62,662 bases of DNA from an uncultured Elusimicrobia bacterium. GTDB lineage: Bacteria > Elusimicrobiota > Elusimicrobia > UBA1565 > UBA9628. Below are positions 2,094 to 26,907 of the stretch, one piece after another. Every line of letters starts with the position of its first letter. The stretch's first letter is position 1. The DNA is taken from assembly GCA_964374095.1 (NCBI GenBank), contig CAYJXJ010000004.1, forward strand, positions 1-62,662. The letters run 5' to 3'. A program made the translations under genes and the position numbers. Under the pieces are notes generated by a model. That model was not told where the DNA came from and did not search any database. It saw only the letters and a list, made by a program, of their open reading frames with translations.

Positions 2094-2528
2094 ATGCCCA
2101 AGAGGCGGCCCGCGCTCGACTCGCTCCCGGACGACCCGGCCACTTGGCCGAAGGAGGCCCTGGTCGCGCTGGAAAGCGCGCACGCCGACGCCCGGGGCTC
2201 CATCCAGCCTCTCCTGGAGCGGTGGATGCGCTCGGCGATGCTGATCAGTTCGCGCCGGGGCGCGCTGCGCGCCAATCACTATCACAAGACCGACTGGCAC
2301 TACTGCTACGTGCTGTCCGGGACGATGAACTACTATCACCGCCGACGCGGCAGCTCCCAAGCCCCTGAACTCCTGGTGGTCCGGCCGGGGCAGATGGTCT
2401 TTACCCCGCCCCAAGTCGAGCATGCGATGCGCTTCCCGAAGGACACCGTTTTTTTGACGCTCTCGCGCAACCCGCGCGACCAAACGGCCTACGAGGAGGA
2501 TGTCGTGAGGGTGGAGCTCCTCAAGTGA
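2094..2528 (+). CDS. cupin-fold sugar-nucleotide isomerase/epimerase-like protein
   Basis: Cupin strands HYHKTDWHYCYVLSG ... MVFTPPQVEHAM. ATG 2094 preferred over GTG 2049. The stop overlaps the next start (GTGA). Confidence 0.7.
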   Translation: MPKRRPALDSLPDDPATWPKEALVALESAHADARGSIQPLLERWMRSAMLISSRRGALRANHYHKTDWHYCYVLSGTMNYYHRRRGSSQAPELLVVRPGQMVFTPPQVEHAMRFPKDTVFLTLSRNPRDQTAYEEDVVRVELLK

Positions 2529-3796: not shown

Positions 3797-4851
3797 TGCT
3801 GCGCTCAGACATCGCCGAAGTCGTCCACGGCCTGGGCGAGACCGTTCAAGCCTTCTCCGGAAAGACCGTCCTGATGACCGGAGGGCGCGGTTTCTTGGGC
3901 CGGTACTTCACCGAGGCATTCCTGCATCTTAACGAGGCCGTCCTCAAGAAGCCCTGCCGCGTCCTGCTGCTCGACAACCTCATCACCGCCGGCGCCGAAG
4001 GCGCGCGCTTCAAGGCCTCGCGCCACGTGCGGTTCCGCCGCCACAACGTCATCAAGCCGCTTGCCTTCCGCGGGCACCTGGACTACATCATCCATGCCGC
4101 CGGCATCGCCAGCCCCTACTACTACCGGGCCTACCCCCTGGAAACCCTCGAGGTCGCGATCCAAGGGACCAAGAACTGCCTGGACCTGGCCCAGGACCGC
4201 GGGGCCCGTATGCTCTTCTTCAGCTCCAGCGAGATCTACGGCGATCCCGATCCCAAGCATGTCCCGACTCCCGAGTCCTACCGCGGCAACGTCTCCTGCC
4301 TGGGGCCGCGCGCCTGCTACGACGAGTCCAAGCGCCTCGGAGAGACGCTGTGCGGGGTCTATCACGTCAAGTTCGGGACCGCGGCCGTGATCGTGCGGCC
4401 GTTCAACGTCTACGGCCCCGGCATGCAGGAAACCGACTACCGCGTCCTCCCCAATTTCGCCGGGCGCATCAAGGCGGGCTTGCCGCTCAAGGTCTACGGA
4501 TCGGGCCGCCAGACCCGGACCTTCTGCTACGTCTCCGACGCCATCTCAGGCTTCCTGCGCGTCCTGCTCAAGGGCGTTCCGGGCGAAGCCTATAACATCG
4601 GCAACCCCGACCCCGAGGTCTCCATGACCGACCTCGTGCGCCACACCGAAGCCGTGCTCGGCCGGCGCGTGAAGGTGGACCTCGTCGAGTATCCGGACAG
4701 CTATCCCGGCGACGAGCCCAACCGCCGCTGTCCCGACATCACCAAGGCCCGGCGGCAGCTGGGCTACGAGCCGCGGGTCCCCCTGCGCGAGGGACTGCGG
4801 CGCTTCTATCACTGGGCGGATTCGGTCTACACGGGCAAAGCCTCGGGCTGA
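3796..4851 (+). CDS. SDR NAD-dependent epimerase/dehydratase, UDP-glucuronate decarboxylase-like
   Basis: GGRGFLGRY Rossmann motif, SSSEIYG, YDESKR catalytic YxxxK. 1-nt overlap with the upstream stop. Confidence 0.85.
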   Translation: MLRSDIAEVVHGLGETVQAFSGKTVLMTGGRGFLGRYFTEAFLHLNEAVLKKPCRVLLLDNLITAGAEGARFKASRHVRFRRHNVIKPLAFRGHLDYIIHAAGIASPYYYRAYPLETLEVAIQGTKNCLDLAQDRGARMLFFSSSEIYGDPDPKHVPTPESYRGNVSCLGPRACYDESKRLGETLCGVYHVKFGTAAVIVRPFNVYGPGMQETDYRVLPNFAGRIKAGLPLKVYGSGRQTRTFCYVSDAISGFLRVLLKGVPGEAYNIGNPDPEVSMTDLVRHTEAVLGRRVKVDLVEYPDSYPGDEPNRRCPDITKARRQLGYEPRVPLREGLRRFYHWADSVYTGKASG

Positions 4852-10132: not shown

Positions 10133-11110
10133 TCAAAGCCCGCGCGCGCGCAGGTCGTGGATTTGGAGCATCCCGACCGCCCGGCCGCGGTCGACGACCG
10201 GAAGGACGTTGAAAGGCTTGCCGCGGTTCTTCATGATCTCGACGGCTCGGGAGACGCTCTCCCGGGGGGCGATCGTGATCGGTTTGGGGTTCATGATCCG
10301 CCGGATGCTGGATTTCATGACATCCCCCCCGCGCTCGAGGGCGCGCCGCAGGTCGTAGTCGGTCACCAGGCCCACGAACCGGCCCCTGCCGTCGGTCACC
10401 GAGACCGCCCCGGCATGAAAGCGCGTCAGCGCTACCAACAACTCGCGGATGGCATCATCCCGGCCGACGACCGGGTTGTCCTCGCCCCCGCGCATCACGT
10501 CGGCGACGGTGAGGCTCAGCCTCCGCCCCAAACGCCCCGCCGGGTGATTGCGCGCGAAGTGCTCGGCCCGGAAGTCGCGCAGCTTCATGAGGGCCACGGC
10601 CAGCCCGTCGCCGGCGGCCAAGGCCGCGGTGGTGCTGCACGTCGGCGCGAGGTTCAAGGGACACGCCTCGTCCTCGACGGGAGTCAGAAGGACCAGGCCC
10701 GCCTGGCGGGCGAGGGTGGACTTCGGGTTGGCGGTCAGGGCGATGAGCCGGGCGCCGATCGAAACGATGCCTGGCAAGAGGCGGCTGATCTCGTCGGATT
10801 CCCCCGACTTGCCCACGACCAGCACCACGTCATGACGCGACACCACCCCCAACCCCCCGTGCGCGGCCTCGGCGGGGGAAAGATACAGCGCCGGGGTGCC
10901 CGTGGATGAGAGCGTGGCCGCGATCTTCTGGGCCACCAGCCCGGACTTGCCGACGCCGGTGAGGATCACCTTGCCGCGGCACTCCAGCATCCACCGGGCC
11001 GCCCGGTCGTAGGCGCCGTCCACGGCCTTGGCCACGCGCGCGAGGGCCTGGGCCTCCAAAAGGATGACGCGCCGGACCTCCCGGGAAACTTTGAAATTGG
11101 ACCGCGACAT
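10133..11110 (-). CDS. kpsF: arabinose-5-phosphate isomerase (SIS + tandem CBS), KpsF/GutQ family
   Basis: GVGKSGLVAQKIAATLSSTGTPA SIS motif, two CBS repeats at the C-terminus. Confidence 0.9.
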   Translation of the reverse strand: MSRSNFKVSREVRRVILLEAQALARVAKAVDGAYDRAARWMLECRGKVILTGVGKSGLVAQKIAATLSSTGTPALYLSPAEAAHGGLGVVSRHDVVLVVGKSGESDEISRLLPGIVSIGARLIALTANPKSTLARQAGLVLLTPVEDEACPLNLAPTCSTTAALAAGDGLAVALMKLRDFRAEHFARNHPAGRLGRRLSLTVADVMRGGEDNPVVGRDDAIRELLVALTRFHAGAVSVTDGRGRFVGLVTDYDLRRALERGGDVMKSSIRRIMNPKPITIAPRESVSRAVEIMKNRGKPFNVLPVVDRGRAVGMLQIHDLRARGL

Positions 11111-11250: not shown

Positions 11251-12252
11251 ATGAGAGTCCTTGTCACCGGCGCGGCCGGCTATGTGGGATGCGTCCTGAC
11301 CCCCCAATTGCTGGAGACGGGCCATGCCGTCGTCGCCTACGACTCCATGCTCTACGGGGCCGAAGGCCTGCCGGTGCACCCCCGACTCGAAGTCCTCCGG
11401 GCCGATATCCGCGACACCGCGCGGCTGGCCGCCGCGATGCGCGGCGCCGAGGCGGTCATCCACCTGGCCTGCATCTCCAACGACCCTTCTTTCGAACTCG
11501 ACCCCGCCATGGGGCGCGGCGTCAACTTCGACTGCTTCGAACCCATGGTCTTGGCGGCCAAGAAGGCGGGGGCGCGGCGCTTCATCTACGCCTCGTCGAG
11601 CTCGGTCTACGGGATCAGCGAGCAGCCCGACGTCGACGAGAGCCATCCCCTGCGCCCCTTGACCGACTACAGCCGCTTCAAGGCCGCCTGCGAGCCGATC
11701 CTCCTGCGCGAGGGCACCGCGGATTTCGCCGTCACCGTGATCCGCCCGGCCACGGTCTGCGGCTATTCCCCCCGCACCCGGCTCGATCTTACCGTGAACA
11801 TCCTCACCAACCTCGCGGTCAACAACGGCCGCATCACGGTCTTCGGCGGATCCCAGAAGCGCCCCAACCTCCACATCGCGGACATGGCCGACCTCTACAG
11901 CCTGCTCCTCGAACTCCCCGCGGCCAGGATCGCGGGCAAGGTCTACAACGCCGGCTACCAGAACCATTCAGTCGCCGACATCGCCGCGATGGTCAAGGGC
12001 GTGGTGGCGCGTGAGTTTCCCGGACGCCCCCCGATCAGCATCCAGACCAGCCCGACCGACGACTTGAGGTCCTATCACATCTCGTCGAAGAAGATCGCCG
12101 CGGAGCTGGGATTCAGCCCGCGCCGCTCGGTCTCGGACGCCGTCGCCGATCTGTGCCGCGCCTTCAAGGCCGGCCGGCTCCCCGACAGCCTCGCCGACGA
12201 ACGCTACTTCAACGTCCGCCGCATGAGATCGCTGGCGGGAACGCCCGCATGA
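11251..12252 (+). CDS. SDR NAD-dependent sugar epimerase/dehydratase
   Basis: MRVLVTGAAGYVG Rossmann motif, SSSSVYG, YSRFKAACE (YxxxK). Confidence 0.85.
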   Translation: MRVLVTGAAGYVGCVLTPQLLETGHAVVAYDSMLYGAEGLPVHPRLEVLRADIRDTARLAAAMRGAEAVIHLACISNDPSFELDPAMGRGVNFDCFEPMVLAAKKAGARRFIYASSSSVYGISEQPDVDESHPLRPLTDYSRFKAACEPILLREGTADFAVTVIRPATVCGYSPRTRLDLTVNILTNLAVNNGRITVFGGSQKRPNLHIADMADLYSLLLELPAARIAGKVYNAGYQNHSVADIAAMVKGVVAREFPGRPPISIQTSPTDDLRSYHISSKKIAAELGFSPRRSVSDAVADLCRAFKAGRLPDSLADERYFNVRRMRSLAGTPA

Positions 12253-13277
12253 GACGAAAGACCCTCCGCGCCGTCGTGACCGGAGGCGCCGGCTTCATCG
12301 GCAGCCACCTCGTGGAGAGGCTGCTCGCCGACGGCCACCGCGTCACCGTGGTCGACAACTTCGCCACGGGCCGACGGTCGAACCTGGCGGAAGCCTCCCG
12401 GCACGGCCGCCTGCGGGTCGTCGAAGCCGACGTGACGGACGCCGGGAAAATGACCGGAGCCCTGCGCGGGACCGACTGGGTCTTCCATCTCGCCGCCCTG
12501 GCCGACATCGTTCCCTCGATCGAGCGGCCGACCGAGTATTTCAGGGCCAACGTGGTCGGGACCCAGACCGTCCTGGAGGCCGCGCGGGCCGCCGGGGTCC
12601 GGAGGTTCCTCTACGCCGCGTCCTCCTCCTGCTACGGCATCCCCGAGGCTTTCCCGACCCCCGAGACCGCCCCCATCCGCCCCCAGTACCCCTACGCCCT
12701 GACCAAATACCTCGGCGAGGAGCTGGTCCGCCACTGGGGGCAGGTCTATCGCATGCCCACGGTGTCCTTGCGTCTGTTCAACGTCTACGGCCCCCGGTCG
12801 AGGACTTCGGGAACGTATGGGGCGGTCTTCGGGATATTTTTGGCCCAGAAACTAAGCGGCCGGCCCTTTACGGTTGTTGGGGACGGACATCAAACACGTG
12901 ACTTTACCTTCGTCACGGATGTTGCCGAAGCCTTTGTGCAAGCGTCGGCCTCGCCGGCGGCCGCCGGCGAGGTGCTTAACGTCGGCTCGGGCTCCACGTA
13001 CAGCGTCAATCGCCTGGTCGAACTCTTGGGCGGGACGAAGGTCCACCTCCCCAAACGACCCGGCGAACCCGATTGCACCTTCGCCGACACCGCTCGAATC
13101 CGCCGGGTCCTGCGCTGGGCCCCGAAAGTCGCCTTCGAGGACGGGGTGGGACGGATGCTGGCGCGCCTCTCGGACTGGCGCGACGCCCCCGTTTGGACGC
13201 CAAAATCGATCGACCAGGCCACCAAGACCTGGTTCCGCCATCTCCAATCCCCCGAGAGGAATCACGCACATGCCTAA
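12249..13277 (+). CDS. SDR NAD-dependent sugar epimerase (GalE/UXS-like)
   Basis: VVTGGAGFIGSHL, SSSCYG, YALTKYLGE (YxxxK). ATG 12249 overlaps the upstream stop (ATGA). The ORF-track start 12153 is a run-on. Confidence 0.85.
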   Translation: MRRKTLRAVVTGGAGFIGSHLVERLLADGHRVTVVDNFATGRRSNLAEASRHGRLRVVEADVTDAGKMTGALRGTDWVFHLAALADIVPSIERPTEYFRANVVGTQTVLEAARAAGVRRFLYAASSSCYGIPEAFPTPETAPIRPQYPYALTKYLGEELVRHWGQVYRMPTVSLRLFNVYGPRSRTSGTYGAVFGIFLAQKLSGRPFTVVGDGHQTRDFTFVTDVAEAFVQASASPAAAGEVLNVGSGSTYSVNRLVELLGGTKVHLPKRPGEPDCTFADTARIRRVLRWAPKVAFEDGVGRMLARLSDWRDAPVWTPKSIDQATKTWFRHLQSPERNHAHA

Positions 13278-14874
13278 GACGCGCGCGAAGTCGCGCCGAA
13301 CTTCCAAGCCGGCCCCCGCCGCATCGGCCCCGTCGCTCAACGGGCATCCATCCCGCACCGCGAATAAGATCAAACCCCTGCGCGAACTGGCCGCCATCGT
13401 CTCGGACCTCAGAAAGAAGGGACGCCAGATCGCCCTTTGCCACGGGGTCTTCGACCTCATCCACCCCGGGCATATCGTGCATTTCAAGGACGCGCGCCGG
13501 CACGGAGACCTCGTCGTCGTGACCGTGACCCCCGACCGCTACGTCAACAAGGGTCCGGGGCGGCCGTTGTTCCACCAGCAGCTGCGCATGGAAACCCTGG
13601 CCGCCCTCGAGCACGTGGACTTCGTCGCGCTCAACGAATGGCCCACCGCTACCGAGACCATCCGCCTGCTCAAGCCCCATGTCTACGTCAAGGGCGGCGA
13701 GTACTCCGACCCCAACTCCGACCTCACGGGGCAGATCGCCAACGAGGAGGCCTCGATCCGCTCCATCGGCGGACGCGTCGTTTTCACCGAGGGCTTCACG
13801 TCCAGTTCGAGCCACCTCATCAACCGCTTCTTCAGCGCCTACCCCGCCCAAACTCAGGAGTACCTCGCGGACCTGCGCACGCGCTTTTCCACGGACCAGA
13901 TTCTCGGCTCGCTCAAGGCCCTTGCGGACCTCGAGGTGCTGGTGGTGGGAGAAGCCATCATCGACCAGTACTCCTACTGCCTGCCCATGGGCAAGTCTCC
14001 AAAAGAGGCGGTGGTGGCCACGCGCTTCGTCTCCGATGAGCTCTTCGCCGGCGGGGCCGTGGCGACGGCCAACCACCTGGCGGGCTTCTGCCGCAACGTC
14101 ACCTACGCGACCGCGCTGGGCCCCAGCGAGGAGGACGCGGCATTCCTGAAGAGCAAGCTCCGCGCCAACGTGCGCCTGGAGGCCATCAGGCTTGACGACC
14201 GCCCCACGGTCCGAAAGACCCGCTTCGTCGACCCCAACTACATCACCAAGATGTTCGAGATTCAGTTTCTCGACGACAGCCCCCTGCCGGAAGCCGCCCA
14301 GACGGGGCTCGCCCGCCTGCTGGAGATGGAAACGAAGCGCCACGACCTCATTGTGGTCAATGACTTCGGGCATGGCCTGCTTCCCGAGGGGTTGCGGGAC
14401 ACTCTCAGCTCCGGCGGCAAATTTCTGGCCCTCAACACCCAGTCCAACGCCGCCAACCACGGCTACAACACCGCCACCAATTACCGGCGGGCCGACTTCG
14501 TCTCCATCGACGAGCCCGAGCTGCGCCTGGCCGCCCGCAACAAGTTCGGCGAGGCCCGGGACTTGGCCGCGAAGCTCCGCGACCACCTCCAGGCCGCGAC
14601 CTTCCTGGTAAGCCTGGGGCGCCACGGCTCGATCGTGCTCACCGGAAACGGTTGGATCCAGGCCCCCGCCCTGGCGACCCGTATCGTCGATCGCACCGGG
14701 GCCGGCGACGCGCTCTTCGCGGTGACCTCTCCCCTGGCGTTTCGCGGCGTCGATCCCGAGATACTCGCCTTTATCGGCAACTGCGTCGGGGCCATGGCCG
14801 TCGAGATCGTCTGCAACCGGGAGCCGATCAACCCCGTGGCGCTCCAAAAATTCATCACCACCCTGTTGAAGTGA
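13270..14874 (+). CDS. bifunctional nucleotidyltransferase (N-terminal, HxGH) / PfkB-family sugar kinase (C-terminal); HldE/RfaE-like with reversed domain order
   Basis: CHGVFDLIHPGHIVHF cytidylyltransferase-superfamily motif at the N-terminus. PfkB signature DRTGAGDALFAV near the C-terminus. ATG 13270 overlaps the upstream gene by 8 nt. Confidence 0.8.
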   Translation: MPKTRAKSRRTSKPAPAASAPSLNGHPSRTANKIKPLRELAAIVSDLRKKGRQIALCHGVFDLIHPGHIVHFKDARRHGDLVVVTVTPDRYVNKGPGRPLFHQQLRMETLAALEHVDFVALNEWPTATETIRLLKPHVYVKGGEYSDPNSDLTGQIANEEASIRSIGGRVVFTEGFTSSSSHLINRFFSAYPAQTQEYLADLRTRFSTDQILGSLKALADLEVLVVGEAIIDQYSYCLPMGKSPKEAVVATRFVSDELFAGGAVATANHLAGFCRNVTYATALGPSEEDAAFLKSKLRANVRLEAIRLDDRPTVRKTRFVDPNYITKMFEIQFLDDSPLPEAAQTGLARLLEMETKRHDLIVVNDFGHGLLPEGLRDTLSSGGKFLALNTQSNAANHGYNTATNYRRADFVSIDEPELRLAARNKFGEARDLAAKLRDHLQAATFLVSLGRHGSIVLTGNGWIQAPALATRIVDRTGAGDALFAVTSPLAFRGVDPEILAFIGNCVGAMAVEIVCNREPINPVALQKFITTLLK

Positions 14875-16991
14875 AGCCAAGCCTGAGAGCCGCTCGCTCC
14901 GCCGGCGCCGTCGTCGTCCAGAAATCCCGGCCCCGCCCGGATATGAAGGGGCTTTTTCGCGCCATGCTGCGAATCCGCATGATCGAGGAGAAAATCGCCG
15001 CGCTCTACCCGGAGCAGGAGATGCGCTGCCCGGTGCATCTCTCCATCGGCCAAGAGGCCACGGCCGTCGGAGTCTGCGCCGCCCTGCGGTCCTCGGATCT
15101 CGTCATGAGCAGCCACCGCTCGCACGGCCACTTCCTGGCCAAGGGCGGCGACTTGAAATCCATGCTGGCCGAGCTCTACGGCAAGCGCACGGGCTGCGCC
15201 GGCGGCAAGGGCGGGTCCATGCATTTCGTCGACCGGCCCGCGGGTTTCCTGGGGGCGACCCCCATCGTCGGGAGCACCATCCCCATCGCGGTCGGCGCGG
15301 CCCTCGCCGCGGCGCGCCGCGGCGAGGATCGGGTCGTCGTGGCCTTCTTCGGCGAGGCCGCGACGGAGGAGGGCGTGTTCCACGAGGCCGTCAATTTCGC
15401 GGCCCTCCACAAGCTTCGGGTGGTCTTTGCCTGCGAGAACAACCTCTACTCCGTCTACTCGCCCCTGTCCGTGCGCCAACCCGGAGGCCGGAGCGTCTCC
15501 GACCTCGCCCGCGGGCACGGACTCAAGACCCTCTCTTGCGAAGGCAACGACGTGATCGCCGTGTCCGAAACCTCCGCCGAGGCCGTCCGGTCGGCCCGGT
15601 CGGGAGCCGGCCCGGTCTTTATCGAGATGTCGACCTATCGCTGGCGCGAGCACTGCGGCGCCAACTACGACAACAATATCGGCTACCGCGAGGAAGCCGA
15701 ATTCCTCGCATGGAAGGAGAAATGCCCCGTCTCGGCGTTCCAAAAGCGGGGGTTCGACGAGGGTTGGCTGACGCCGCCCCAGCTCTCGGCCATGGAACGG
15801 GAGCTTTCCCTGGAGATTTCGGAGGCCGTTCGCTTCGCCAAGGACAGCCCCTTTCCCGGCCCGGAGGAGCTCATGAACCGGGTCTACGCTCCGGCGGACG
15901 CGGCTCCCGCCGCGGCTTCAGGGAGGAAGGGAGCGAAAGGGACGCGGGAACTGCGGTTCTTCGAAGCCCTGCGCGAGGCGACCGAACTGGCCATGGAGGC
16001 GGATCCTTCGGTCTATGTCATGGGGCTCGGGGTGCCCGATCCCAAAGGCGTGTTTGGAACCACGCTGGGGCTGCAGCGAACATTCGGCGCGGACCGGGTC
16101 CTCGACATGCCCACCTCCGAGAACGGCATGACGGGGGTCGCCATCGGGTCGGCCCTCCTGGGCCTGAGGCCCATCCTCGTTCACCAACGCGGGGACTTCG
16201 CCATCCTCTCCATGGAGCAGTTGGTCAATCAAGCGGCCAAGTGGCATTCGATGTTCGACGGCAAGACGCGCGTGCCCCTCGTCGTGCGCATGGTCGTGGG
16301 CCGGGGCTGGGGGCAGGGCGCGCAGCATTCCCAGAGCCTCCAAAGCTGGTTCGCCCACATCCCGGGGCTCAAGGTCGTCATGCCCTCCACCCCCTCCGAC
16401 GCCAAGGGGCTGCTGCTCTCCTCCATCTGGGACGGCAATCCGGTCATCTTCATCGAACACCGCTGGCTGCACGGCGTCCGCGGCCCCGTCCCGGAGGGGC
16501 TCACCCTCGAGCCTCTCGGCAAGGCTCGCGTGCTGCGGCCGGGGCGTGACGTGACGCTCCTGGGGGTTTCCTACATGACGCTGGAATCCCTGCGCGCCGC
16601 CGAGTACCTCGCGGCCGAGGGAGTGGACGCCGAGGTGGTGGATGTTAGGACCGTGCGGCCTCTTGATGAAGCGGCGATACTAATCTCGTTGCGAAAGACA
16701 GGAAGGCTGATCGTGGCCGACACTGGTTGGCTGACGGCAGGTTTCGCGGCCGAGGCTATTGCCGTGGCGGCTGAGAAGGGCTTCGCATCATTGCAGGCGC
16801 CGCCACGGCGGCTAGGGCTGTCGGACTGTCCCGTCCCATCGACGCCGGCCCTGGCCAATCTCTGCTACCCGCACGCCTGGGACATCGCCGTCGCGGCCTT
16901 GGAGACCTTGGGGCGCAAGCCCAAAGCCGCGCCGCCCAAGCCCACGGGCCCGTTGGACGTGCCCGATCCGTCCTTCACGGGGCCCTTCTGA
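14871..16991 (+). CDS. fused TPP-dependent 2-oxoacid dehydrogenase E1 alpha + E1 beta
   Basis: Alpha part: RIRMIEEKIA, HLSIGQEA, GKGGSMH. Beta part: LDMPTSENGMTGVAIGSAL, HSQSLQSWFAHIPGLKVVMPS. One uninterrupted frame. GTG 14871 (GTGA overlap) or ATG 14943 as start. Confidence 0.85.
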   Translation: MKPSLRAARSAGAVVVQKSRPRPDMKGLFRAMLRIRMIEEKIAALYPEQEMRCPVHLSIGQEATAVGVCAALRSSDLVMSSHRSHGHFLAKGGDLKSMLAELYGKRTGCAGGKGGSMHFVDRPAGFLGATPIVGSTIPIAVGAALAAARRGEDRVVVAFFGEAATEEGVFHEAVNFAALHKLRVVFACENNLYSVYSPLSVRQPGGRSVSDLARGHGLKTLSCEGNDVIAVSETSAEAVRSARSGAGPVFIEMSTYRWREHCGANYDNNIGYREEAEFLAWKEKCPVSAFQKRGFDEGWLTPPQLSAMERELSLEISEAVRFAKDSPFPGPEELMNRVYAPADAAPAAASGRKGAKGTRELRFFEALREATELAMEADPSVYVMGLGVPDPKGVFGTTLGLQRTFGADRVLDMPTSENGMTGVAIGSALLGLRPILVHQRGDFAILSMEQLVNQAAKWHSMFDGKTRVPLVVRMVVGRGWGQGAQHSQSLQSWFAHIPGLKVVMPSTPSDAKGLLLSSIWDGNPVIFIEHRWLHGVRGPVPEGLTLEPLGKARVLRPGRDVTLLGVSYMTLESLRAAEYLAAEGVDAEVVDVRTVRPLDEAAILISLRKTGRLIVADTGWLTAGFAAEAIAVAAEKGFASLQAPPRRLGLSDCPVPSTPALANLCYPHAWDIAVAALETLGRKPKAAPPKPTGPLDVPDPSFTGPF

Positions 16992-17094
16992 TGAATCGCG
17001 TATCAGCTCCCTTGCGAGGGATGGCCCCGGCCGGTCACCTCGAACTCCGCCCGGGCGGAGTTCACCAGGCCTGCCCCCGGGTCCGGGTCCCCCG

Positions 17095-18213
17095 ATGAAG
17101 GCTCTCTCGGCCCGCAAGGTTCCTTACGTGGACCTCGCGGCTCAGCACGCCCCGCTGCGAGAGGAGCTCCTGGAAGCCGCGGGGCGGGTGATTTCGCACG
17201 GCCAGTTCATACTCGGCCCGGAGGTCGCGCGGTTCGAGGAGCGATTCGCCAAGCTCTGCCGGACGCGCTACGCCGTGGGCGTGGCCAACGGGACCGACGC
17301 CCTGGGGCTGGCCCTGCGGGCGCTGGGCATCGGGCCGGGAGACGAGGTCATTACCGCGCCCAACTCCTTCGTGGCCTCGGCCTCGGCCGTCGCTCTCGTC
17401 GGGGCGCGGCCGGTATTTTCCGACGTCGGGCCGGACTATAATCTCGATCCCAAGGCGGTCGAACGCGCGGTGACGTCGCGCACAAAGGCCATCCTCCCCG
17501 TCCACCTCACGGGAAGGCCGGCGGACATGGACGCTCTCATGGGGCTCGCCAAGGCCAATGGCCTGCGCGTCGTGGAAGACTGCGCGCAGGCCGTGCTCGC
17601 CGAGTACAAGGGCCGCCGCGTCGGCTCCTTCGGGAGCTTCGGCGCCTTCAGCCTCCACCCTCTCAAAACCTTGAACGCCTGCGGCGACGGCGGCGTTCTC
17701 ACCACCAACGACGAAGGCCTCTACCGAAAAGCCCTGGCCCTGCGCAACATCGGGTTGGAGACGCGGGATCGGTGCGTGGCCTGGTCCGGGAACAGCCGCC
17801 TGGATACGATCCAGGCGGCATTCCTGCTGGTAAAGCTCAAGCACCTCGAAAAATGGACGGAAGCGAGGCAAAAAAACGCGGCCTACTATCAGAAGGCCCT
17901 CGACGGAGTCGAAGGCCTGATCATCCCGACGGACCGACCCCATGAGAAAGCCGTTTTTCATACGTTTGTCGTGATGTCCGAGCGCCGGGACGCCCTCAAA
18001 GCGTTCCTGGCGGAACGCGGCATCGGGACCTCGATCCACTACCCCGTGCCGATCCATCTTCAGCCCGCGGCGGCGGCGTTGGGCTACAAGGCCGGGGATT
18101 TCCCCCAAGCGGAGCGGCAGGCCCGGCGCATACTGAGCCTTCCCGCGCACCACGAACTCTCCGAAGAGGACCTCGCCGCGGTCGCCGCCGCGGTCCGGGA
18201 GTTCCACCGATGA
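17095..18213 (+). CDS. DegT/DnrJ/EryC1/StrS-family sugar aminotransferase
   Basis: [10 protein letters not shown]..., [21 protein letters not shown] (PLP-lysine region). Confidence 0.9.
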
Positions 18214-19406
18214 GCGTCGCGATGGGCAAGGGCCCAGCGTCCCCGAAGGGCGGCCGTTCTCCGATCCCGAAGGGGGCCGCGGCCCGCGGGACAGTGCGCG
18301 TGCCCTTCTCCTACCTCGACCGCCAGTTCGCCGACGTCGAGGCCACCCTCAAGGAACTGGGGGCCTTCGTGCGCACCGGGGACTTCACGCTCGGGCGGCC
18401 GCTCCAAGAGTTCGAAGCGGGCTTCGCCAATCTCCTCGGACACCCCCACGCCGTCGGCGTCGGGACCGGGACCGACGCCCTGGCCCTCTCCCTCAAGGCC
18501 GTCGGCATCAAGGCGGGCGACGAGGTCATCACCACACCCATGACCTTCGTCGCCACCGTGGGCGCGATCGTCCAGGCCGGGGCCCGCCCGGTCTTCGTCG
18601 ACAGCGAGGAGGGCTTCGTCATCGACCCCGGCAAGGTCGAGGCGGCGATCACCCCCCGCACCCGCGCGCTCCTTCCCGTCCATTACACCGGAAACGTGGC
18701 GGACATGCCCGCCCTCGCCGAGATCGCGCGTCGGCGGGGACTCGCCATCGTCGAGGACGCCTGCCAATCCATCATGGGCGCCATCGACGGCAAGACCGTC
18801 GGCTCCTGGGGAGCGGCCGCGGGCTTCTCCCTGCATCCCTTGAAAAACCTCAATGTCTGGGGAGACGGGGGCGTGATCGTCACCCGCTCCAAGGAGCTCG
18901 CCGACTCCCTGAGGCTCCTGCGCAATCACGGCCTCACGGGCCGCGACGAGGTGGCGGTCTTCGGCGTCAACTCCCGCCTCGACACCCTCCAGGCCGTGAT
19001 CGGCAACCGCCTCCTGCCCCAGACCCCCTGGATCACCGAGCGCCGCATCCAGGTGGCCAAGCGCTACGACCAGGCCTTCGCGGGGCTGGCCGGCGAGGTC
19101 GACGTCCCGCCCCGCCGCCGCGGGGTCCGGCATGTCTTTCACCTGTACCTACTGCGAGCCAGGCGCCGGGACGCCTTGCTCGCCTTCCTGCAGGACCAGG
19201 GCATCGAAGCCAAGGTGCACTACCCCATTCCCATGCACCTGCAGAAAGCCAGCCGTCACCTGGGCTACGGCCCGGGTGACTTCCCCGTGTGCGAAGCCGA
19301 TTGCAAACGAATCCTTACCCTTCCAGCCCACCAGCATCTTACAGACGACGAAATCTCCTACGTGATCGACACGGTCAAGACCTTCTGCAAAAAGGGCGGC
19401 CGATGA
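18210..19406 (+). CDS. DegT/DnrJ/EryC1/StrS-family sugar aminotransferase (second copy)
   Basis: [39 protein letters not shown] overlap with the upstream gene. Confidence 0.9.
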
Positions 19407-19415
19407 GGCGCCAGG

Positions 19416-19442
19416 CTTGTAGGACTCGGTCCAGGACCGAGT
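19416..19442. repeat. palindromic intergenic element, copy 1 (CTTGTAGgACTCGGTCCAGGACCGAGT)
   Basis: Contains a 9-bp inverted repeat ACTCGGTCC/GGACCGAGT. A near-identical copy lies at 24134-24160. Confidence 0.6.
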
Positions 19443-19458
19443 CGGCGCCAAGACTGCC

Positions 19459-20487
19459 ATGAGCCCCCGGAATCGATACCTGGTCATCGGCTCCAACTGC
19501 TTCACCGGAAGCCACATCGTCGACGCCCTCCGCGGCCAACCCGGGGCCCAGGTCGTCGGGGTCAGCCGCGCCCCTGAATACAAGCCGCTCTACCTGCCTT
19601 ATGCCGCCCGCCGGCGGGAGGGCTGGGAGTTCCGTCAAATCGACTTCGTGCGCGAACCCGAACGGCTGTTATCCCTGCTCGACGAAGTCCGCCCCCAGGT
19701 CGTCATCCACGTCGCGGCCTTGAGCGAGGTGGCCCTGAGCCACGAGCTCCCGCTCGAGTATTTCGAGACCAACACCGTGGGCACCGTGCGCCTCTGCGAT
19801 CACCTGCGGCGGCGGGACTATCTCGAGCGCTACGTCCACATCTCCTCGGCGGAGATATTCGGCTCCACGCTCAAGCCCGTCGACGAGAGCGCCCGCTTCG
19901 ACCCCACGACCCCCTACGCGGTCTCCAAGGCCGCGGCCGACATGTACCTGCACAGCCTCATGCGCAACTTCAATTTTCCAGCTATCCTCATCCGCTCGAC
20001 CAACGTCTACGGCCGCCACCAGAAGCTCTACAAGATCATCCCGCGGACGGCGATCTATCTGAAGATGGGAAAGACGATCGAGCTGCACGGCGGGGGAACG
20101 GCCAAAAAATCCTTCATCCATGTCCGAGACGTCGTCGCGGGGCTGATGCTCGCTCTCGAGAAAGGCGCGCCCGGGACCTATCACTTCAGCGTGCCCAGTT
20201 CGCGCACGGTCGCAGACGTGGTACGGCTCGTCTGCGACTGCTTAGGCCGGGACTTCTCCGGGGCGGTCCAGGCCGTGGGCGAGCGCCTCGGGCAGGACTC
20301 GCGCTACGAACTCGACTGCGGCAAGGCCGCCCGCGAGCTCGGCTGGTCGCCCCGGATATCGCTTGAGGACGGAGTCAAGGAGACCATCGCCTGGATCGAG
20401 GCGAATTGGGAAGAGGTGCGGCGCGAGCCGCTCACCTACATCCACAGCAGCTCGCGGCTCGCGCCCGAGGGAGCCTTGCGTGGCTGA
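19459..20487 (+). CDS. SDR NDP-sugar 4,6-dehydratase-like enzyme
   Basis: VIGSNCFTGSHIV, SSAEIFG, YAVSKAAADMY (YxxxK). Confidence 0.85.
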   Translation: MSPRNRYLVIGSNCFTGSHIVDALRGQPGAQVVGVSRAPEYKPLYLPYAARRREGWEFRQIDFVREPERLLSLLDEVRPQVVIHVAALSEVALSHELPLEYFETNTVGTVRLCDHLRRRDYLERYVHISSAEIFGSTLKPVDESARFDPTTPYAVSKAAADMYLHSLMRNFNFPAILIRSTNVYGRHQKLYKIIPRTAIYLKMGKTIELHGGGTAKKSFIHVRDVVAGLMLALEKGAPGTYHFSVPSSRTVADVVRLVCDCLGRDFSGAVQAVGERLGQDSRYELDCGKAARELGWSPRISLEDGVKETIAWIEANWEEVRREPLTYIHSSSRLAPEGALRG

Positions 20488-22306
20488 AGCCGCGACGGCC
20501 GTCGCAACCGATGCCTTTGGAGAGTTCCTTGGAAGCCTGAAAATCCGGGTTCCCAAGGAGTTGGTGCTGATAAATCCCCCCCTGGTCCCCGAGGACGCCT
20601 TCGACGTGGCCATCGCCCGCAACCGCGGCTACTACGCCTTCCCCCCCAACGGCCTGCTTTACCTATGCGCGGTCGCGCGCAAGGTCCTGCCCGACATCCG
20701 CCTCAAGGTCATCGACCTCAACTACGAGCTCCTCCGCCGGGCGCGGTCCGACGATTTCACCTACGGCGTCTGGCGGGACATCCTGCGCCGGGAGCTTTCG
20801 GACTGCGACGCCCCGCACGTCGGCGTCACGTGCATGTTCGGAGCCACCAAGGTGGGCTTCCTCGAGGTCACCAAATGGCTTCGCGCCGAGTATCCGGAGG
20901 TCCCCATACTCTGCGGCGGAGTCCAGGCCACCTACGACTTCAAGGAGCTTCTGGGGGCCGGGGCCTGCGACATCGTGGTCCGCCGCGAGGGAGAACTGCA
21001 ATTCGAAGCTTTCCTTGAGCGCTGCAAGGACCCCAACTCCGCCGCCCTGCCGACGGGCGCGGCCTTCCGGCACGAGAGGCGCATATTCGAGCTTGGGGAA
21101 GCCGCGGGCGAGGCCTCCGCGGACTGGGATATCCGGCCCTACTACGAGCTCATCGACGTGTCGCGCTATCACGAGGTGGGCTCGCTGGCCGCCTTCTCGC
21201 GCTTCAACGGGGCCGACAAGCCCTTCGCCACGGTTCTCACCCGGCGCGGGTGCCGCGCCCGCTGCACCTTCTGCACGGTCCGCGATTTCAACGGTTTCGG
21301 CGTGCGGGAACGGCCGGTCCAGAGCGTGGTCGATGAAATCACGTATCTCGTGCGGGAGCGCGGCATCCGCCAGATCGACTGGCTCGACGACGACCTGCTC
21401 TGGAACGCTTCCGGGGCCCTGGAGCTCTTCAACCGCCTGGCTACGGAGGTCCCGGAGCTCGAATGGATCTGCAATAACGGCCTCATCGCGGCCGCGATCT
21501 CCGACGACATCATGGACGGCATGGTCCGATCCGGCATGAAGGCCTTTAAAATAGGCATCGAGACCGGCAACGACGAGATGCTCCACGCCGTCAAGAAGCC
21601 CACCACCAAGGTCAAGCTTCGTATCCGCCGGCATCTCTTTCGCAAGTATCCCGAGGTCTTCGTCAGCGCCAACTTCATTTTGGGATTTCCCCGCGAGACC
21701 TTCGCCCAGATGCTCGACACCTACCGCTTCGCCAATGAGCTGCAGTGGGACTGGTCGAGCTTCTACATCTGCCAACCCCTGAAGGGCACCGAGATGTTCT
21801 CGGTCTGGCAGTCGATGGGCGACGAACGCTGTGACGTGGAAAGCTACGACAAGACCCTCAATCCCGGCCGGGCGGCGGCCCGGGGCGAGTTCGGCTACAA
21901 ATTCAAAGCCGGCGAGGAACACCCCATCCTCTCCGGGCGCGACGTGTTCAAGATATCCCCCGAGACGGCTCCCGACTCCGAGCAGCTCAAGGAGATTTGG
22001 TTCACGTTCAACCTCGTGGCCAATTTCCTCAACAACCCGAATTTCCTGCCCGGCGGCAACCCCGCCAAAATCGTCCGCTGGTTCGAGTCCATCGCCCACG
22101 CCTACCCCTACGACGCCTCCATGGCCGCGGCCCTGGCGCGCGGCTACCGGATGCTGGGCGACGAGGGGCGTTTCGCGGCCAACCACGAGAAGTTCCACGC
22201 CATCGTGCGGGAATCGTCATATTGGCGCCGCCGCCTGCAGGAATTCCCCGAGCTTGAGCGTTTGGCCTCGGGAGAAGAAGGGAGGTCCCCATGGGAGAAT
22301 TCGTAA
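20480..22306 (+). CDS. B12-binding-domain radical SAM enzyme (class B type)
   Basis: CRARCTFC (CxxxCxxC) cluster motif preceded by a Rossmann-like cobalamin-binding region (VGVTCMFGATK..ILCGGVQATY). GTG 20480 overlaps the upstream gene by 8 nt. The ORF-track start 20363 is a run-on. Confidence 0.85.
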   Translation: MAEAATAVATDAFGEFLGSLKIRVPKELVLINPPLVPEDAFDVAIARNRGYYAFPPNGLLYLCAVARKVLPDIRLKVIDLNYELLRRARSDDFTYGVWRDILRRELSDCDAPHVGVTCMFGATKVGFLEVTKWLRAEYPEVPILCGGVQATYDFKELLGAGACDIVVRREGELQFEAFLERCKDPNSAALPTGAAFRHERRIFELGEAAGEASADWDIRPYYELIDVSRYHEVGSLAAFSRFNGADKPFATVLTRRGCRARCTFCTVRDFNGFGVRERPVQSVVDEITYLVRERGIRQIDWLDDDLLWNASGALELFNRLATEVPELEWICNNGLIAAAISDDIMDGMVRSGMKAFKIGIETGNDEMLHAVKKPTTKVKLRIRRHLFRKYPEVFVSANFILGFPRETFAQMLDTYRFANELQWDWSSFYICQPLKGTEMFSVWQSMGDERCDVESYDKTLNPGRAAARGEFGYKFKAGEEHPILSGRDVFKISPETAPDSEQLKEIWFTFNLVANFLNNPNFLPGGNPAKIVRWFESIAHAYPYDASMAAALARGYRMLGDEGRFAANHEKFHAIVRESSYWRRRLQEFPELERLASGEEGRSPWENS

Positions 22307-22959
22307 ACCTGATCAAGGCGACGGTCAAATACTACGACGGCGCGCCCCGCAACATGGATCCCACCTTCGGGCACGGCTATTTCGACAACACCCGCGACAC
22401 CGGCTACGGCGGCTACCGCTACGACGGACGATGGTCCGCCGTAGCGGCCGCCGTTGTCGGCCGCTACAAACTCACTGCCGAGGCCTCGGTCCTGGACTTA
22501 GGCTGCGCGAAAGGCTTCTTCGTCGTCGATCTTTTAAAATCCGTCCCCGGCATCAAGGTCGTTGGTACGGACATCTCCGAATACGCCGTCGCCAACGCCC
22601 ATCCCGACGCCAAGCCCCACCTCAAGGTCGAGAGCGCCGACGACCTCGCCGGCTACGCGGACCGCCGATTCGACCTGATCTGCGCCATGAACACGATCCA
22701 CTTCCTCACGCCCGAGCGCGCCGAGCACGCCTTGCGCGAGATCGGCCGCATCGGCAAGGGCCGGGCCTTCGTGCAGGTGGACGCCTTCACCAACGAGACC
22801 GAGCGCGAACGGTTGCTGGCCTGGGCGCCCATCATCAAAACCGTCTACTCGGTCGACCAGTGGCTGGCCCTGTTCAAGAAGACCGGCTACCAGGGCGACT
22901 ACTGGTGGACCTTCGTTCGCCCCACCTCGGCCCAGCCCGCGCCCGTCCCCGCGACTTGA
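22291..22959 (+). CDS. class I SAM-dependent methyltransferase
   Basis: VLDLGCAKGFFV motif I, FDLICAMNTIHFL. Confidence 0.8.
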   Translation: MGEFVNLIKATVKYYDGAPRNMDPTFGHGYFDNTRDTGYGGYRYDGRWSAVAAAVVGRYKLTAEASVLDLGCAKGFFVVDLLKSVPGIKVVGTDISEYAVANAHPDAKPHLKVESADDLAGYADRRFDLICAMNTIHFLTPERAEHALREIGRIGKGRAFVQVDAFTNETERERLLAWAPIIKTVYSVDQWLALFKKTGYQGDYWWTFVRPTSAQPAPVPAT

Positions 22960-24008
22960 CCCTTCCCGACACGACCGAAGCCGCGGTCCTATTCGAGACC
23001 GGCCAGCCCCTGCGCATCGTCTCCTTGGGGCTTCCGCCCCTGCGGGAAGGACAGGTTTTGGTGGAGCTCGCCTTCAGCGGGGTCTGCCACACCCAAGTCC
23101 TGGAGGCCGACGGCAAGCGCGGCCCGGACCGCTTCCTGCCGCACACTCTGGGCCATGAAGGCTCCGGAACGGTCCTCGGGACCGGGCCCGGGGTCTCCAA
23201 GGTCAAACTCGGCGAGCGGGTGGTGCTCTCGTGGATCAGAGGCTCGGGCGCCAACGCCGCCCCCGCCGCCTACGCGGGCCCCGACGGCAAGGTCAACTCG
23301 GGCCAAATATCAACTTTCATGCGCCATGCCGTGGTCTCCGAGAACCGCCTCACGCCCATCCCCGAAGGGATGCCCCTGCGGGAAGGGGCGCTGCTCGGCT
23401 GCGCGCTGCTTACCGGAGCCGGCATCGCCTTCAACGCGGCCGAAGTCCAGGCCGGGCAGAGCGTGGGAGTCTTTGGCTGCGGCGGCATCGGGCTTTCCGC
23501 GATCCTAGGGGCCAAGCTCCGCGGGGCGGGCATGATCGTGGCGGTGGACGTCATTGAAGAAAAGCTGAGGATGGCACGCGACGCCGGGGCTACGCACATC
23601 ATTAACGCCCGGACCGCTGATCCTGTAGAGGCGGTCCTGGCCCTGCTGAGCCGGGGACTCGATTGCGCGATTGAAGCGGCCGGCCGCAGCGAGACAATGG
23701 AGGCGGCATTCCGCTCCGTGCGCGAGGGCGGGGGCCTATGCGTCTTGGCCGGCAACCTCCCGCACGGCGGGCGCATCTCCATCGACCCCATGGACCTTAT
23801 CAAGGGCAAGCGCATCGTCGGCACCTGGGGAGGGGAAAGCCGTCCGGACCGAGACATCCCCTTCTTCGCCGAAGAGTTCATCGCGGGCCGCCTCAAGCTC
23901 TGGCCCCTGGCCCTGCGCGACTACGCCCTTAAGGACGTCAACCAGGCCATGTCCGACCTCAAAGCCGGCCAAGTCGGCCGGGCCCTGATCAGCCTGGCCG
24001 CGGCGTAG
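22956..24008 (+). CDS. zinc-dependent medium-chain alcohol dehydrogenase-family oxidoreductase
   Basis: GVCHTQV and GHEGSGTV zinc-ligand motifs, GCGGIGLSA NAD motif. TTG 22956 overlaps the upstream stop (TTGA). The ORF-track start 21831 is a run-on. Confidence 0.85.
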   Translation: MTLPDTTEAAVLFETGQPLRIVSLGLPPLREGQVLVELAFSGVCHTQVLEADGKRGPDRFLPHTLGHEGSGTVLGTGPGVSKVKLGERVVLSWIRGSGANAAPAAYAGPDGKVNSGQISTFMRHAVVSENRLTPIPEGMPLREGALLGCALLTGAGIAFNAAEVQAGQSVGVFGCGGIGLSAILGAKLRGAGMIVAVDVIEEKLRMARDAGATHIINARTADPVEAVLALLSRGLDCAIEAAGRSETMEAAFRSVREGGGLCVLAGNLPHGGRISIDPMDLIKGKRIVGTWGGESRPDRDIPFFAEEFIAGRLKLWPLALRDYALKDVNQAMSDLKAGQVGRALISLAAA

Positions 24009-25905: not shown

Positions 25906-25920
25906 TAACGCCACCCCTCG

Positions 25921-26907
25921 ATGCCGACTCAGAGCCGCTCCCGACCCCTGGTCTGCGCCACCCCGCTGCACTTCCTACCCGACGTCCACGGCAAGCTCCG
26001 CCGGGATTTTGCGCTGACCGTGGCGTTCGGCTGGAGCGCCGCCCGGCTTTCCAGAGCCCTGCGGCCGGCCCGGGCCTTCATCCCCAACCCCGGAACGCCC
26101 TTCCGCCTGGGATCCGAGGTCCTTGGTTCAGCCGAGAGGCTCGAGATTCTGGTGACCCCATCGACGGGAACCGACCACATCGACCTCGCGTTCTGCCGCA
26201 AACGGGGAATCGTCGTGCGCTCCCTGCGCGACCGAATGGACATCACCGAGTCGATCCACGCTTCGGCCGAATTCAGCCTAACGCTGCTCCTGGGTTTGAT
26301 CCGCCGCTTGCCGGCCGCGGCCGAGGCGGCACGGCGCGGAGTCTGGCGCGAAGCCGAGGATCGGTTCCGCGGCATCGAACTGGCCGGCAAGACCGTCGCC
26401 TTGATCGGCTACGGACGGATCGGCCGCAAGATGGCGGGCTACCTGAGGGCCCTCGGGGCCAAGCTTGTCGTCTACGATCCCCACGTCAAGGTCCGAGACC
26501 CCTGGGCGTGCCAAGTCCGCAGCCTGGAGCTGGCCCTCGCGGCGGCGGACATCGTCAGCCTTCATCTGCACTTGGACGACTCGACCCGCGGCCTCTTCGG
26601 AGCGAAGGCCTTCTCCAGACTGCGCCGCGGGGCGTACCTGGTCAACACCTCGCGGGGAGGCCTCGTGGATGAGCCGGCCCTCCTGCGGGCCCTGCGCTCC
26701 GGACGCCTGGCCGGCGCGGCCGTGGACGTGGTGCAGGGCGAGCAGGGCGGGAACCTAGCCGACCGCCCCCTGATGCGCTACGCGCGGATCCATCCCGCGC
26801 TGGTCGTCACACCCCACATCGCAGGGCTCACCGTGGACTCCCAGAGGAAGGCCGCGCTCTTCGCGGTCTCGGAACTGAGGAGACACTTCGGGCTGAAGGA
26901 TGACTGA
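25921..26907 (+). CDS. D-isomer-specific 2-hydroxyacid dehydrogenase-family oxidoreductase
   Basis: GKTVALIGYGRIGRKMA NAD motif, VNTSRGGLVDE, AAVDVV. Confidence 0.85.
   Translation: MPTQSRSRPLVCATPLHFLPDVHGKLRRDFALTVAFGWSAARLSRALRPARAFIPNPGTPFRLGSEVLGSAERLEILVTPSTGTDHIDLAFCRKRGIVVRSLRDRMDITESIHASAEFSLTLLLGLIRRLPAAAEAARRGVWREAEDRFRGIELAGKTVALIGYGRIGRKMAGYLRALGAKLVVYDPHVKVRDPWACQVRSLELALAAADIVSLHLHLDDSTRGLFGAKAFSRLRRGAYLVNTSRGGLVDEPALLRALRSGRLAGAAVDVVQGEQGGNLADRPLMRYARIHPALVVTPHIAGLTVDSQRKAALFAVSELRRHFGLKDD

Follow-up and report, generated by a model that had tools for sequence, protein, structure and literature searches.

A fused E1 alpha-beta enzyme in an Elusimicrobia surface-glycan locus as a probable E2-independent carboligase of a nucleotide-heptose pathway

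The 62,662-nucleotide stretch at positions 1-62,662 of contig CAYJXJ010000004.1 from an uncultured Elusimicrobia bacterium (assembly GCA_964374095.1), referred to here as the window, carries a gene in which the alpha and beta chains of a thiamine diphosphate (ThDP)-dependent E1 enzyme of the 2-oxoacid dehydrogenase type are joined in a single polypeptide. Translation of the stop-free frame at 14871-16991 yields 706 residues that contain the motifs HLSIGQEA (15036-15059), GKGGSMH (15204-15224) and PTSENGMTGVAIG, and Pfam assigns E1_dh to residues 31-331 (E-value 7.5e-67), Transket_pyr to 363-531 (2.3e-30) and Transketolase_C to 550-671 (8.4e-31), in agreement with a preliminary description of this DNA that had recognised a 706-codon E1 alpha-beta frame from the same motifs. 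The closest sequence matches in the PDB are the E1 alpha and beta chains of pyruvate dehydrogenase (PDH) and branched-chain 2-oxoacid dehydrogenase (BCKDH). The start codon is uncertain: with GTG at 14871 the letters GTGA (14871-14874) overlap the TGA stop of an upstream HldE-like gene, but homologues align only from about residue 25 of this longer version, and the public gene call (P0002, 682 residues) begins at ATG 14943. Because the choice between the two is undecided, the translational coupling that had been read from the overlap is uncertain too, although the overlapping letters themselves are present. The gene lies within an uninterrupted plus-strand run of ten genes with few gaps (11251-24008), as delimited by codon-position GC content, Pfam and NCBIfam (Table 1).

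Table 1. Parts of the fused E1 gene and the genes of the run that surrounds it (SDR, short-chain dehydrogenase/reductase; PLP, pyridoxal phosphate; SAM, S-adenosylmethionine).
Feature	Coordinates	Strand	Basis or remark
Fused E1 alpha-beta ThDP enzyme	14871-16991	+	706 residues from GTG 14871 or 682 residues from ATG 14943
E1-alpha (PP) part	14943-15893	+	HLSIGQEA, GKGGSMH, ThDP-Mg motif and clade signature inside
17-residue linker ADAAPAAASGRKGAKGT	15894-15944	+	Site of the alpha stop and intergenic spacer in split relatives
E1-beta (Pyr and C-terminal) part	15945-16898	+	Pfam, catalytic motifs, Foldseek
Clade-specific C-terminal extension	16899-16988	+	Ends in PLDVPDPSFTGPF (16950-16988); canonical E1-beta lacks it
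epimA, extended SDR (ASSSSVYG...YxxxK)	11251-12252	+	Pfam Epimerase; no NCBIfam equivalog
epimB, SDR of epimerase/oxidoreductase type (AASSSCYG)	12249-13277	+	Likely start ATG 12249
Inverted HldE-like enzyme: N-terminal HxGH nucleotidyltransferase, C-terminal PfkB kinase	13270-14874	+	Pfam CTP_transf_like and PfkB
DegT aminotransferase 1	17095-18213	+	PLP lysine in HPLK
DegT aminotransferase 2	18210-19406	+	PLP lysine in HPLK
4,6-dehydratase-like SDR (HISSAEIFG...YAVSK)	19459-20487	+	TIGR01181 184 bits, below cut-off
B12-binding radical SAM enzyme	20480-22306	+	Pfam/NCBIfam
Class I SAM methyltransferase	22291-22959	+	Orthologues often adjoin E1 in other loci
Zn-dependent alcohol dehydrogenase, candidate maker of the carbonyl acceptor	22956-24008	+	

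The cofactor-binding and catalytic residues of the fused protein are all intact. The alpha part holds the ThDP-Mg motif FGEAATEEG...CENN (15348-15443) and a catalytic histidine within the loop YRWREHCG (15636-15659), and the beta part holds the cofactor-activating glutamate in PTSENG (16110-16148) and a second histidine in GAQHSQS (16317-16337). The same residues are conserved, with the metal site in the form G(D/E)(G/A)...CENN, throughout the clade formed by its relatives of at least 45% identity. The best NCBIfam matches are pyruvate-type E1 models, every one of them below its equivalog cut-off (TIGR03182, 296 against 394; PRK09212, 298 against 321; PRK11892, 284 against 454). Compared with PDH and BCKDH E1 of known structure (PDB 1w85, 1ni4 and 1um9), the fused protein shares the fold, 31-41% identity, the ThDP/Mg motif, the glutamate and both histidines, but differs in its sub-threshold NCBIfam scores, in its location outside any E2 operon, in having no E2 or E3 partner, and in a loop and a C-terminal extension described below.

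An AlphaFold2 model of the fused chain was of high overall confidence (pLDDT 89, pTM 0.91), with low values only in the linker (pLDDT about 55) and the C-terminal tail (pLDDT 48-65); the placement of the tail from this monomer model was dropped, as its pLDDT gives no confident position. The beta part superposes on PDH E1-beta chains with a Foldseek TM score of 0.95, and for the full single chain the best superposition is with transketolase (TMq about 0.65). From the model, the single-chain form is expected to assemble into a homodimer like that of transketolase, corresponding to the alpha2-beta2 tetramer of split E1 enzymes. The domain order shared with transketolase and 1-deoxyxylulose-5-phosphate synthase (DXS) is a result of the fusion: the PP domain is E1_dh and not Transketolase_N, identity is 17-19%, the expected donor is a 2-oxo acid and not a ketose, and NCBIfam models for transketolase and DXS scored 32-75 bits against cut-offs of 395-575, which places the protein outside that class.

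The preliminary description had reported no gene for E2, the lipoyl acyltransferase, or E3, dihydrolipoamide dehydrogenase, in the window, and none was found there when the search was extended to the entire metagenome-assembled genome (MAG; 4.8 Mb in 317 contigs, 94% complete). The genome has one E2 catalytic domain (C66:7875-8564) and one lipoamide dehydrogenase that scores above cut-off (C66:6469-7860), both on a different contig and part of a complete canonical E1a-E1b-E2-E3 operon (C66:6469-11330). This operon is the only 2-oxoacid dehydrogenase complex detected in the MAG, and its own E1 shares 31% (alpha) and 40% (beta) identity with the fused protein. Furthermore, the 2-oxoacid_dh domain of E2 (PF00198) is absent from 9 of 27 genomes that carry a clade member, these being two Dehalococcoidia, two Methanosarcinales, one each of Thermoplasmatota, Saccharibacteria, Nanoarchaeota and Woesearchaeota, and one unclassified genome. 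No E2-like family is conserved near the E1 genes of the clade in the 39 loci that extend at least 6 kb to both sides of the E1 (long E1 loci).

Two features of the clade set it apart from canonical E1 enzymes. The alpha loop reads YRW(R/L)EHCG where others have YRxxGH(S/T), and the beta chain runs about 24-30 residues past the canonical C-terminus to end in (P)LD(V/I)PDxSF(T/K)GPF, a tail that is almost unchanged across bacteria and archaea. The tail is absent in a more distant clade of 37-42% identity and in the E1-beta of the C66 operon. In a Geobacillus structure of E1 with the peripheral subunit-binding domain of E2 (E1-PSBD), the free C-terminus of the beta chain reportedly contacts that domain; if this is right, the extension would displace the very terminus through which the contact is made. 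A shorter tail, FxGPY, was seen in a sister subclade that includes an E1 pair from a Streptomyces plasmid.

The genes that surround the E1 recur with it across distant lineages. In the 39 long E1 loci, an HldE-like gene was present in 33, orthologues of epimA in 30 (40-72% identity) and of epimB in 21 (45-73% identity), a GmhA-like isomerase in 17 and a GmhB-like phosphatase in 12; further members of the cassette are a methyltransferase (19 loci), a dehydratase-like SDR (17), a DegT pair (15), a Zn-dependent alcohol dehydrogenase (Zn-ADH; 12) and a SPASM radical SAM enzyme (11). Overall, sugar-gene synteny is kept in 34 of the 39 loci, and the cassette is absent around relatives of 37-42% identity. 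We regard the pathway as heptose-type because GmhA-like, inverted HldE-like and GmhB-like genes are found together in the cassette. Carriers include marine Synechococcus (Cyanobacteria), Chloroflexota, Elusimicrobia, Saccharibacteria, Nitrospinota, Thermoplasmatota, Methanosarcinales, Woesearchaeota and others. Among cultured organisms, a plasmid of Azospirillum oryzae KACC 14407 has the order SDR, SDR, PfkB-type HldE-like gene, SIS, SDR, E1a, E1b, DegT, DegT, radical SAM, NUDIX and family 4 glycosyltransferases, its split E1 pair being HUE56_RS00825/00820, and the clade was also found in glycan loci of Solidesulfovibrio magneticus RS-1 (pDMC1) and A. lipoferum 4B (p6). A literature search found no publication on the heptose cassette, nor anything specific on E1 proteins within gene clusters for O-antigen or heptose, or on a connection with Coxiella lipopolysaccharide.

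The Zn-ADH and the SPASM radical SAM enzyme (for example the cluster-19 member at L032:4287-5438) are mutually exclusive, with none of the 23 long E1 loci that contain either one containing both. NeoA and BtrN alternate in aminoglycoside pathways, and by analogy this suggests the idea, offered only as such, that the two enzymes of the cassette could be alternative makers of the same carbonyl. NUDIX hydrolases and FAD enzymes resembling L-2-hydroxyglutarate oxidase are also found repeatedly in E1 cassettes (the A. oryzae and S. magneticus plasmid loci L168 and L169, with examples at L001:2246-3478 and L169:20365-21567); the latter enzymes may recycle 2-oxoglutarate for WbpB-type sugar dehydrogenases.

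To view the cassette from a sample unbiased towards E1, we collected 80 metagenome loci with a profile of the inverted HldE-like protein and made counts on the 36 with at least 10 kb of flank. The HldE-like gene of this sample is accompanied by epimA, which is present in most of the loci, and by epimB, GmhA-like and GmhB-like genes. An E1 was present in 8 of the 36 loci and a split transketolase in 16, that is, Transketolase_N followed by Transket_pyr with or without a C domain (Pfam and NCBIfam), and neither was present in 12. The two never occurred together, against about 3.6 co-occurrences expected (hypergeometric P about 0.004). Among the E1-anchored loci, both were present in 5 of 39, and 6 of 39 had a ThDP enzyme resembling acetolactate synthase (ALS) or YerE. 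The E1 is thus an optional module of the heptose cassette and is interchangeable with a split transketolase. Since these enzymes, unrelated or only distantly related, have in common the transfer of an activated aldehyde unit to a carbonyl, their use in the same slot favours carboligation over E2-dependent oxidation, and the absence of any ThDP enzyme from some core cassettes disfavours a role in building the early precursor. The idea that epimA is an E1-specific reductase partner was rejected, as epimA is a core gene that is also present where the E1 is missing.

Examples of split transketolases in cassettes lacking an E1 are found at L095:7365-9150, L107:17056-18323 and L114:14668-15950. They are usually preceded by an HAD-like (DxDxT) protein and an APH-type kinase, which in L107 and L114 are fused into a protein of about 547 residues. 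The GPF tail was sought on these transketolase modules and is absent from them.

The preliminary description had attached weight to the fusion of the two chains, which the wider family does not bear out. More than 5000 homologues of the fused E1 were found, and in 80 genome loci fetched with the protein 64 had separate alpha and beta genes and 16 a single chain, a few of the latter probably being shadow open reading frame artefacts. The calls in L032, L072, L073 and L062 are probably of this kind, arising in high-GC DNA, and were excluded from a second tree. Split relatives have at the junction an alpha chain ending in ...YAP and a stop, a short spacer with a ribosome-binding site, and a beta start leading to ...RELKF; readthrough of a single in-frame stop between alpha and beta, considered for many loci, was ruled out by this ordinary arrangement. 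In the FastTree phylogeny the core of the clade at 50% identity or above comprises 50 members (support 0.89), the window protein groups with split Elusimicrobia pairs (L023 and L078, support 0.90), and fused forms are dispersed over the tree. Because the window protein nests among split pairs and fused forms are scattered, the fusion arose, on this phylogeny, when a stop codon was lost recently within this one lineage, and it is an incidental feature, not a family trait.

Within the window, no terminator-like or promoter-like signal stands out in the ten-gene run, and the likely epimB start overlaps the epimA stop (ATGA). Matches of the HldE-like protein to rfaE_dom_II and rfaE_dom_I fall under their cut-offs. 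The two DegT aminotransferases that had been described downstream of the E1 are confirmed, and the 4,6-dehydratase described after them is a 4,6-dehydratase-like SDR; a role of either DegT protein as a dehydratase is ruled out, the PLP lysine being kept in both. GmhA and GmhB genes are missing from the window, and candidates for them lie elsewhere in the genome on contigs C79, C194 and C72; a KpsF/KdsD-like gene upstream (10133-11110) was rejected as the isomerase of the pathway, since it accompanies the E1 in just 1 of 82 loci. Two GC-rich perfect hairpins without a T-run lie in the gaps between E1 and DegT1 (17042-17063, GAACTCCGCCC/GGGCGGAGTTC) and between DegT2 and the dehydratase (19421-19446); their sequences differ, and they may be processing or stability elements inside the operon. 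Further upstream, at 2369-4851, are adjacent genes for an NDP-hexose C-methyltransferase (NDP, nucleoside diphosphate; Methyltransf_13/14) and a UXS-like SDR, which in a Woesearchaeota locus (L002:4391-6694) are fused into a protein of 767 residues; this fusion suggests that the locus also holds a second pathway, for a C-methyl-branched sugar.

Enzymes of the E1 type with a role in sugar branching are known from antibiotic biosynthesis. According to a 2025 review, those of the alphaKADH2 class attach acetyl branches to keto-sugars in the pathways to aldgamycin, kosinostatin, avilamycin, paulomycin, trioxacarcin and kibdelomycin; assayed in vitro, KbDH-alpha/beta uses pyruvate as its donor and accepts ketones, and subsequent steps reduce, methylate, oxidise or transaminate the ketone of the branch (PMC12247030). 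The proposal for AviB1/B2 and Pau11/12 comes from work on paulomycin (PMC4753412). Like the fused E1, AviB1/B2, Pau11/12 and KbDH are E1 alpha/beta proteins without E2 or E3 that are encoded amid keto-sugar-producing NDP-sugar tailoring genes, a likeness of architecture and context, and by analogy the methyltransferase, Zn-ADH, radical SAM enzyme and aminotransferases next to the fused E1 could play downstream roles like those in the AviB-type pathways. These pathways belong to antibiotic clusters and dTDP- or CDP-deoxyhexoses, whereas the fused E1 lies in a surface-glycan locus with a heptose-type pathway, is a single chain in the window and belongs to a family spread over many phyla, including archaea. 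YerE, which acts in yersiniose formation, and YerE-like enzymes have the same proposed job, the transfer of a two-carbon (C2) unit from pyruvate to an NDP-keto-sugar of a surface glycan, and YerE/ALS-like genes co-occur in some sister cassettes. In the review cited above, the alphaKADH2 class and transketolases serve mainly specialised metabolites and YerE-like enzymes serve lipopolysaccharide (PMC12247030). YerE and YerE-like enzymes belong to the decarboxylase-type ThDP superfamily (TPP_enzyme_N/M/C, FAD-binding) and have no sequence relationship to the fused E1, which matches TPP_enzyme_C only below threshold (19.9 bits against a cut-off of 21.9) and lacks the YerE architecture.

Taken together, these observations suggest that the fused E1 is probably a ThDP carboligase that works without E2 and transfers a C2 unit from pyruvate to an oxidised NDP-heptose, and that it likely serves as a tailoring module of the ten-gene operon, whose product would be a heavily modified NDP-heptose for a surface glycan. 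In the pathway that we propose from gene content, the inverted HldE-like enzyme of the operon, acting with housekeeping GmhA and GmhB whose genes lie elsewhere in the genome, would convert sedoheptulose 7-phosphate to an NDP-heptose. The SDRs, the 4,6-dehydratase-like enzyme and/or the Zn-ADH would then put carbonyls on the sugar. The E1 would decarboxylate pyruvate to hydroxyethyl-ThDP and pass the C2 unit to a sugar carbonyl, giving an acetyl- or 1-hydroxyethyl-bearing sugar, with a tertiary-alcohol branch if a ring ketone is attacked or a two-carbon extension if a terminal aldehyde is. The DegT pair, the methyltransferase and the B12-radical SAM enzyme could decorate the sugar further, and glycosyltransferases of the locus would consume the finished product. 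Pyruvate as donor, the acceptor, the site at which it is attacked and the sequence of the steps are those we infer as best fitting the gene complement. An orphan E1 of AviB1/AviB2 type acting in a sugar pathway had been suggested in the preliminary description. The synteny across phyla, the carriers without E2 and the replacement by transketolase are in line with that suggestion, but the pathway is of the heptose type and not a classical deoxyhexose route, and the E1 is an optional part of it.

Several observations weigh against this interpretation. The Mg-binding motif of the window protein is GEA and not GDG, yet GEA, GEG and GDA variants recur within the clade. The nine carrier genomes without PF00198 are MAGs of unknown completeness. 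The enzyme that would form the acceptor varies by locus and may be a dehydratase-like SDR, a Zn-ADH, a SPASM radical SAM enzyme or a Gfo/Idh/MocA protein; because it is not fixed, the site of attack (ring ketone or terminal aldehyde) is not deducible from it. Finally, an E1 pair of the sister subclade on plasmid pSGRIFU1 of Streptomyces griseofuscus (L167, 13995-16041), 52% identical to the fused protein, with a beta chain ending in FAGPY and the nearest actinomycete relative found, has non-sugar neighbours: a 1103-residue condensation-domain protein, an acyl carrier protein (ACP), a phosphopantetheinyl transferase, type II ketosynthases and gamma-butyrolactone regulators. Since this pair adjoins a condensation domain, an ACP and ketosynthases, the wider clade that bears the tail is not limited to acting on sugars.

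A terminal aldehyde as acceptor, with the same enzyme class and the same donor, is the alternative that survives best, although we consider it unlikely. The C7 position of the NDP-heptose would be oxidised, for example by the Zn-ADH, and the resulting aldehyde extended in the manner of DXS or transketolase to a nine-carbon sugar. Transketolase-fold enzymes usually take aldehydes, transketolase gives the best superposition of the fused chain and is what the E1 is exchanged for, and Zn-ADHs of the kind present in the window and in 12 of the 39 loci usually act on primary alcohols or aldehydes. The characterised E1-type sugar enzymes, in contrast, attack ring ketones at C3 or C4 (PMC12247030), many E1 cassettes have no Zn-ADH, and a C7 aldehyde is without direct evidence.

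It appears improbable that the sugar is instead the donor, with the E1 decarboxylating a sugar-derived 2-oxo acid such as a 6-keto-hepturonate and so shortening or rearranging its side chain, or else supplying an acyl group that becomes N-linked to an amino sugar. Decarboxylation of R-CO-COOH is the native reaction of E1 enzymes, the E1 often directly adjoins the DegT pair, and the Streptomyces relative sits beside a condensation domain and an ACP. The cassette contains no conserved uronate-forming dehydrogenase and no conserved lipoyl, E2-like or carrier-protein gene, however, acyl transfer from hydroxyethyl-ThDP requires an oxidant of which none is evident, and the exchange for transketolase suits C2 transfer better.

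We consider it very unlikely that the protein is a further E1 of the usual kind, partnering the E2 and E3 of the C66 operon in trans to turn a 2-oxo acid into an acyl-CoA, with the sugar genes as chance neighbours. Such a role would be compatible with the presence of every catalytic residue of a lipoyl-dependent E1, both histidines included, and with the one E2 and one E3 of the genome, but the synteny with sugar genes over many phyla and two domains of life, the third of carrier genomes without E2, NCBIfam scores uniformly under the PDH E1 cut-offs, the extension that would displace the beta C-terminus reportedly in contact with E2, and the E1 already present in the C66 operon all argue otherwise. 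Equally hard to sustain is an early role in which the E1 builds a ketose phosphate from pyruvate or hydroxypyruvate and an aldose phosphate, for isomerisation and activation by the GmhA-, HldE- and GmhB-like enzymes in the manner of LmbR in lincosamide octose formation: the isomerase, kinase, phosphatase and nucleotidyltransferase all score under the heptose equivalog cut-offs, so that the sugar may not be a plain heptose, and a 2-hydroxyacid dehydrogenase gene lies at 25909-26907, but this gene is found in only 1 of 82 loci, the 12 long HldE-like cassettes without any ThDP enzyme indicate that the core pathway does not need one, and a 1-deoxy-ketose made from pyruvate cannot isomerise to an aldose for anomeric activation.

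The carboligase reading of the fused E1 may extend beyond this locus, and we tentatively raise the possibility, doubtful as it is at present, that a slot for a ThDP enzyme in the heptose cassette, whether its occupant is an E1 pair, a YerE-like enzyme or a split transketolase, is a general bacterial and archaeal route to nine-carbon or C-branched sugars based on NDP-heptose, in which the FxGPF tail and the EHCG loop would replace E2 docking by recognition of the nucleotide sugar; no such sugar has yet been described in any glycan. To our knowledge, C-C bond formation on sugars by ThDP enzymes of the E1 type is known from a few actinomycete antibiotic pathways, with one such enzyme assayed. What is new here is a sequence-defined E1 clade that many bacterial phyla and several lineages of archaea carry in surface-glycan loci, tied to an NDP-heptose pathway. 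Cultured carriers such as A. oryzae KACC 14407, A. lipoferum 4B and S. magneticus RS-1 make the prediction directly testable, and the clade would offer new carboligases for tertiary alcohols, of which the natural single-chain E1 should express more easily than alpha/beta pairs. If the proposed function is correct, a family of undescribed branched or chain-extended, heptose-derived surface sugars is to be expected in these organisms.

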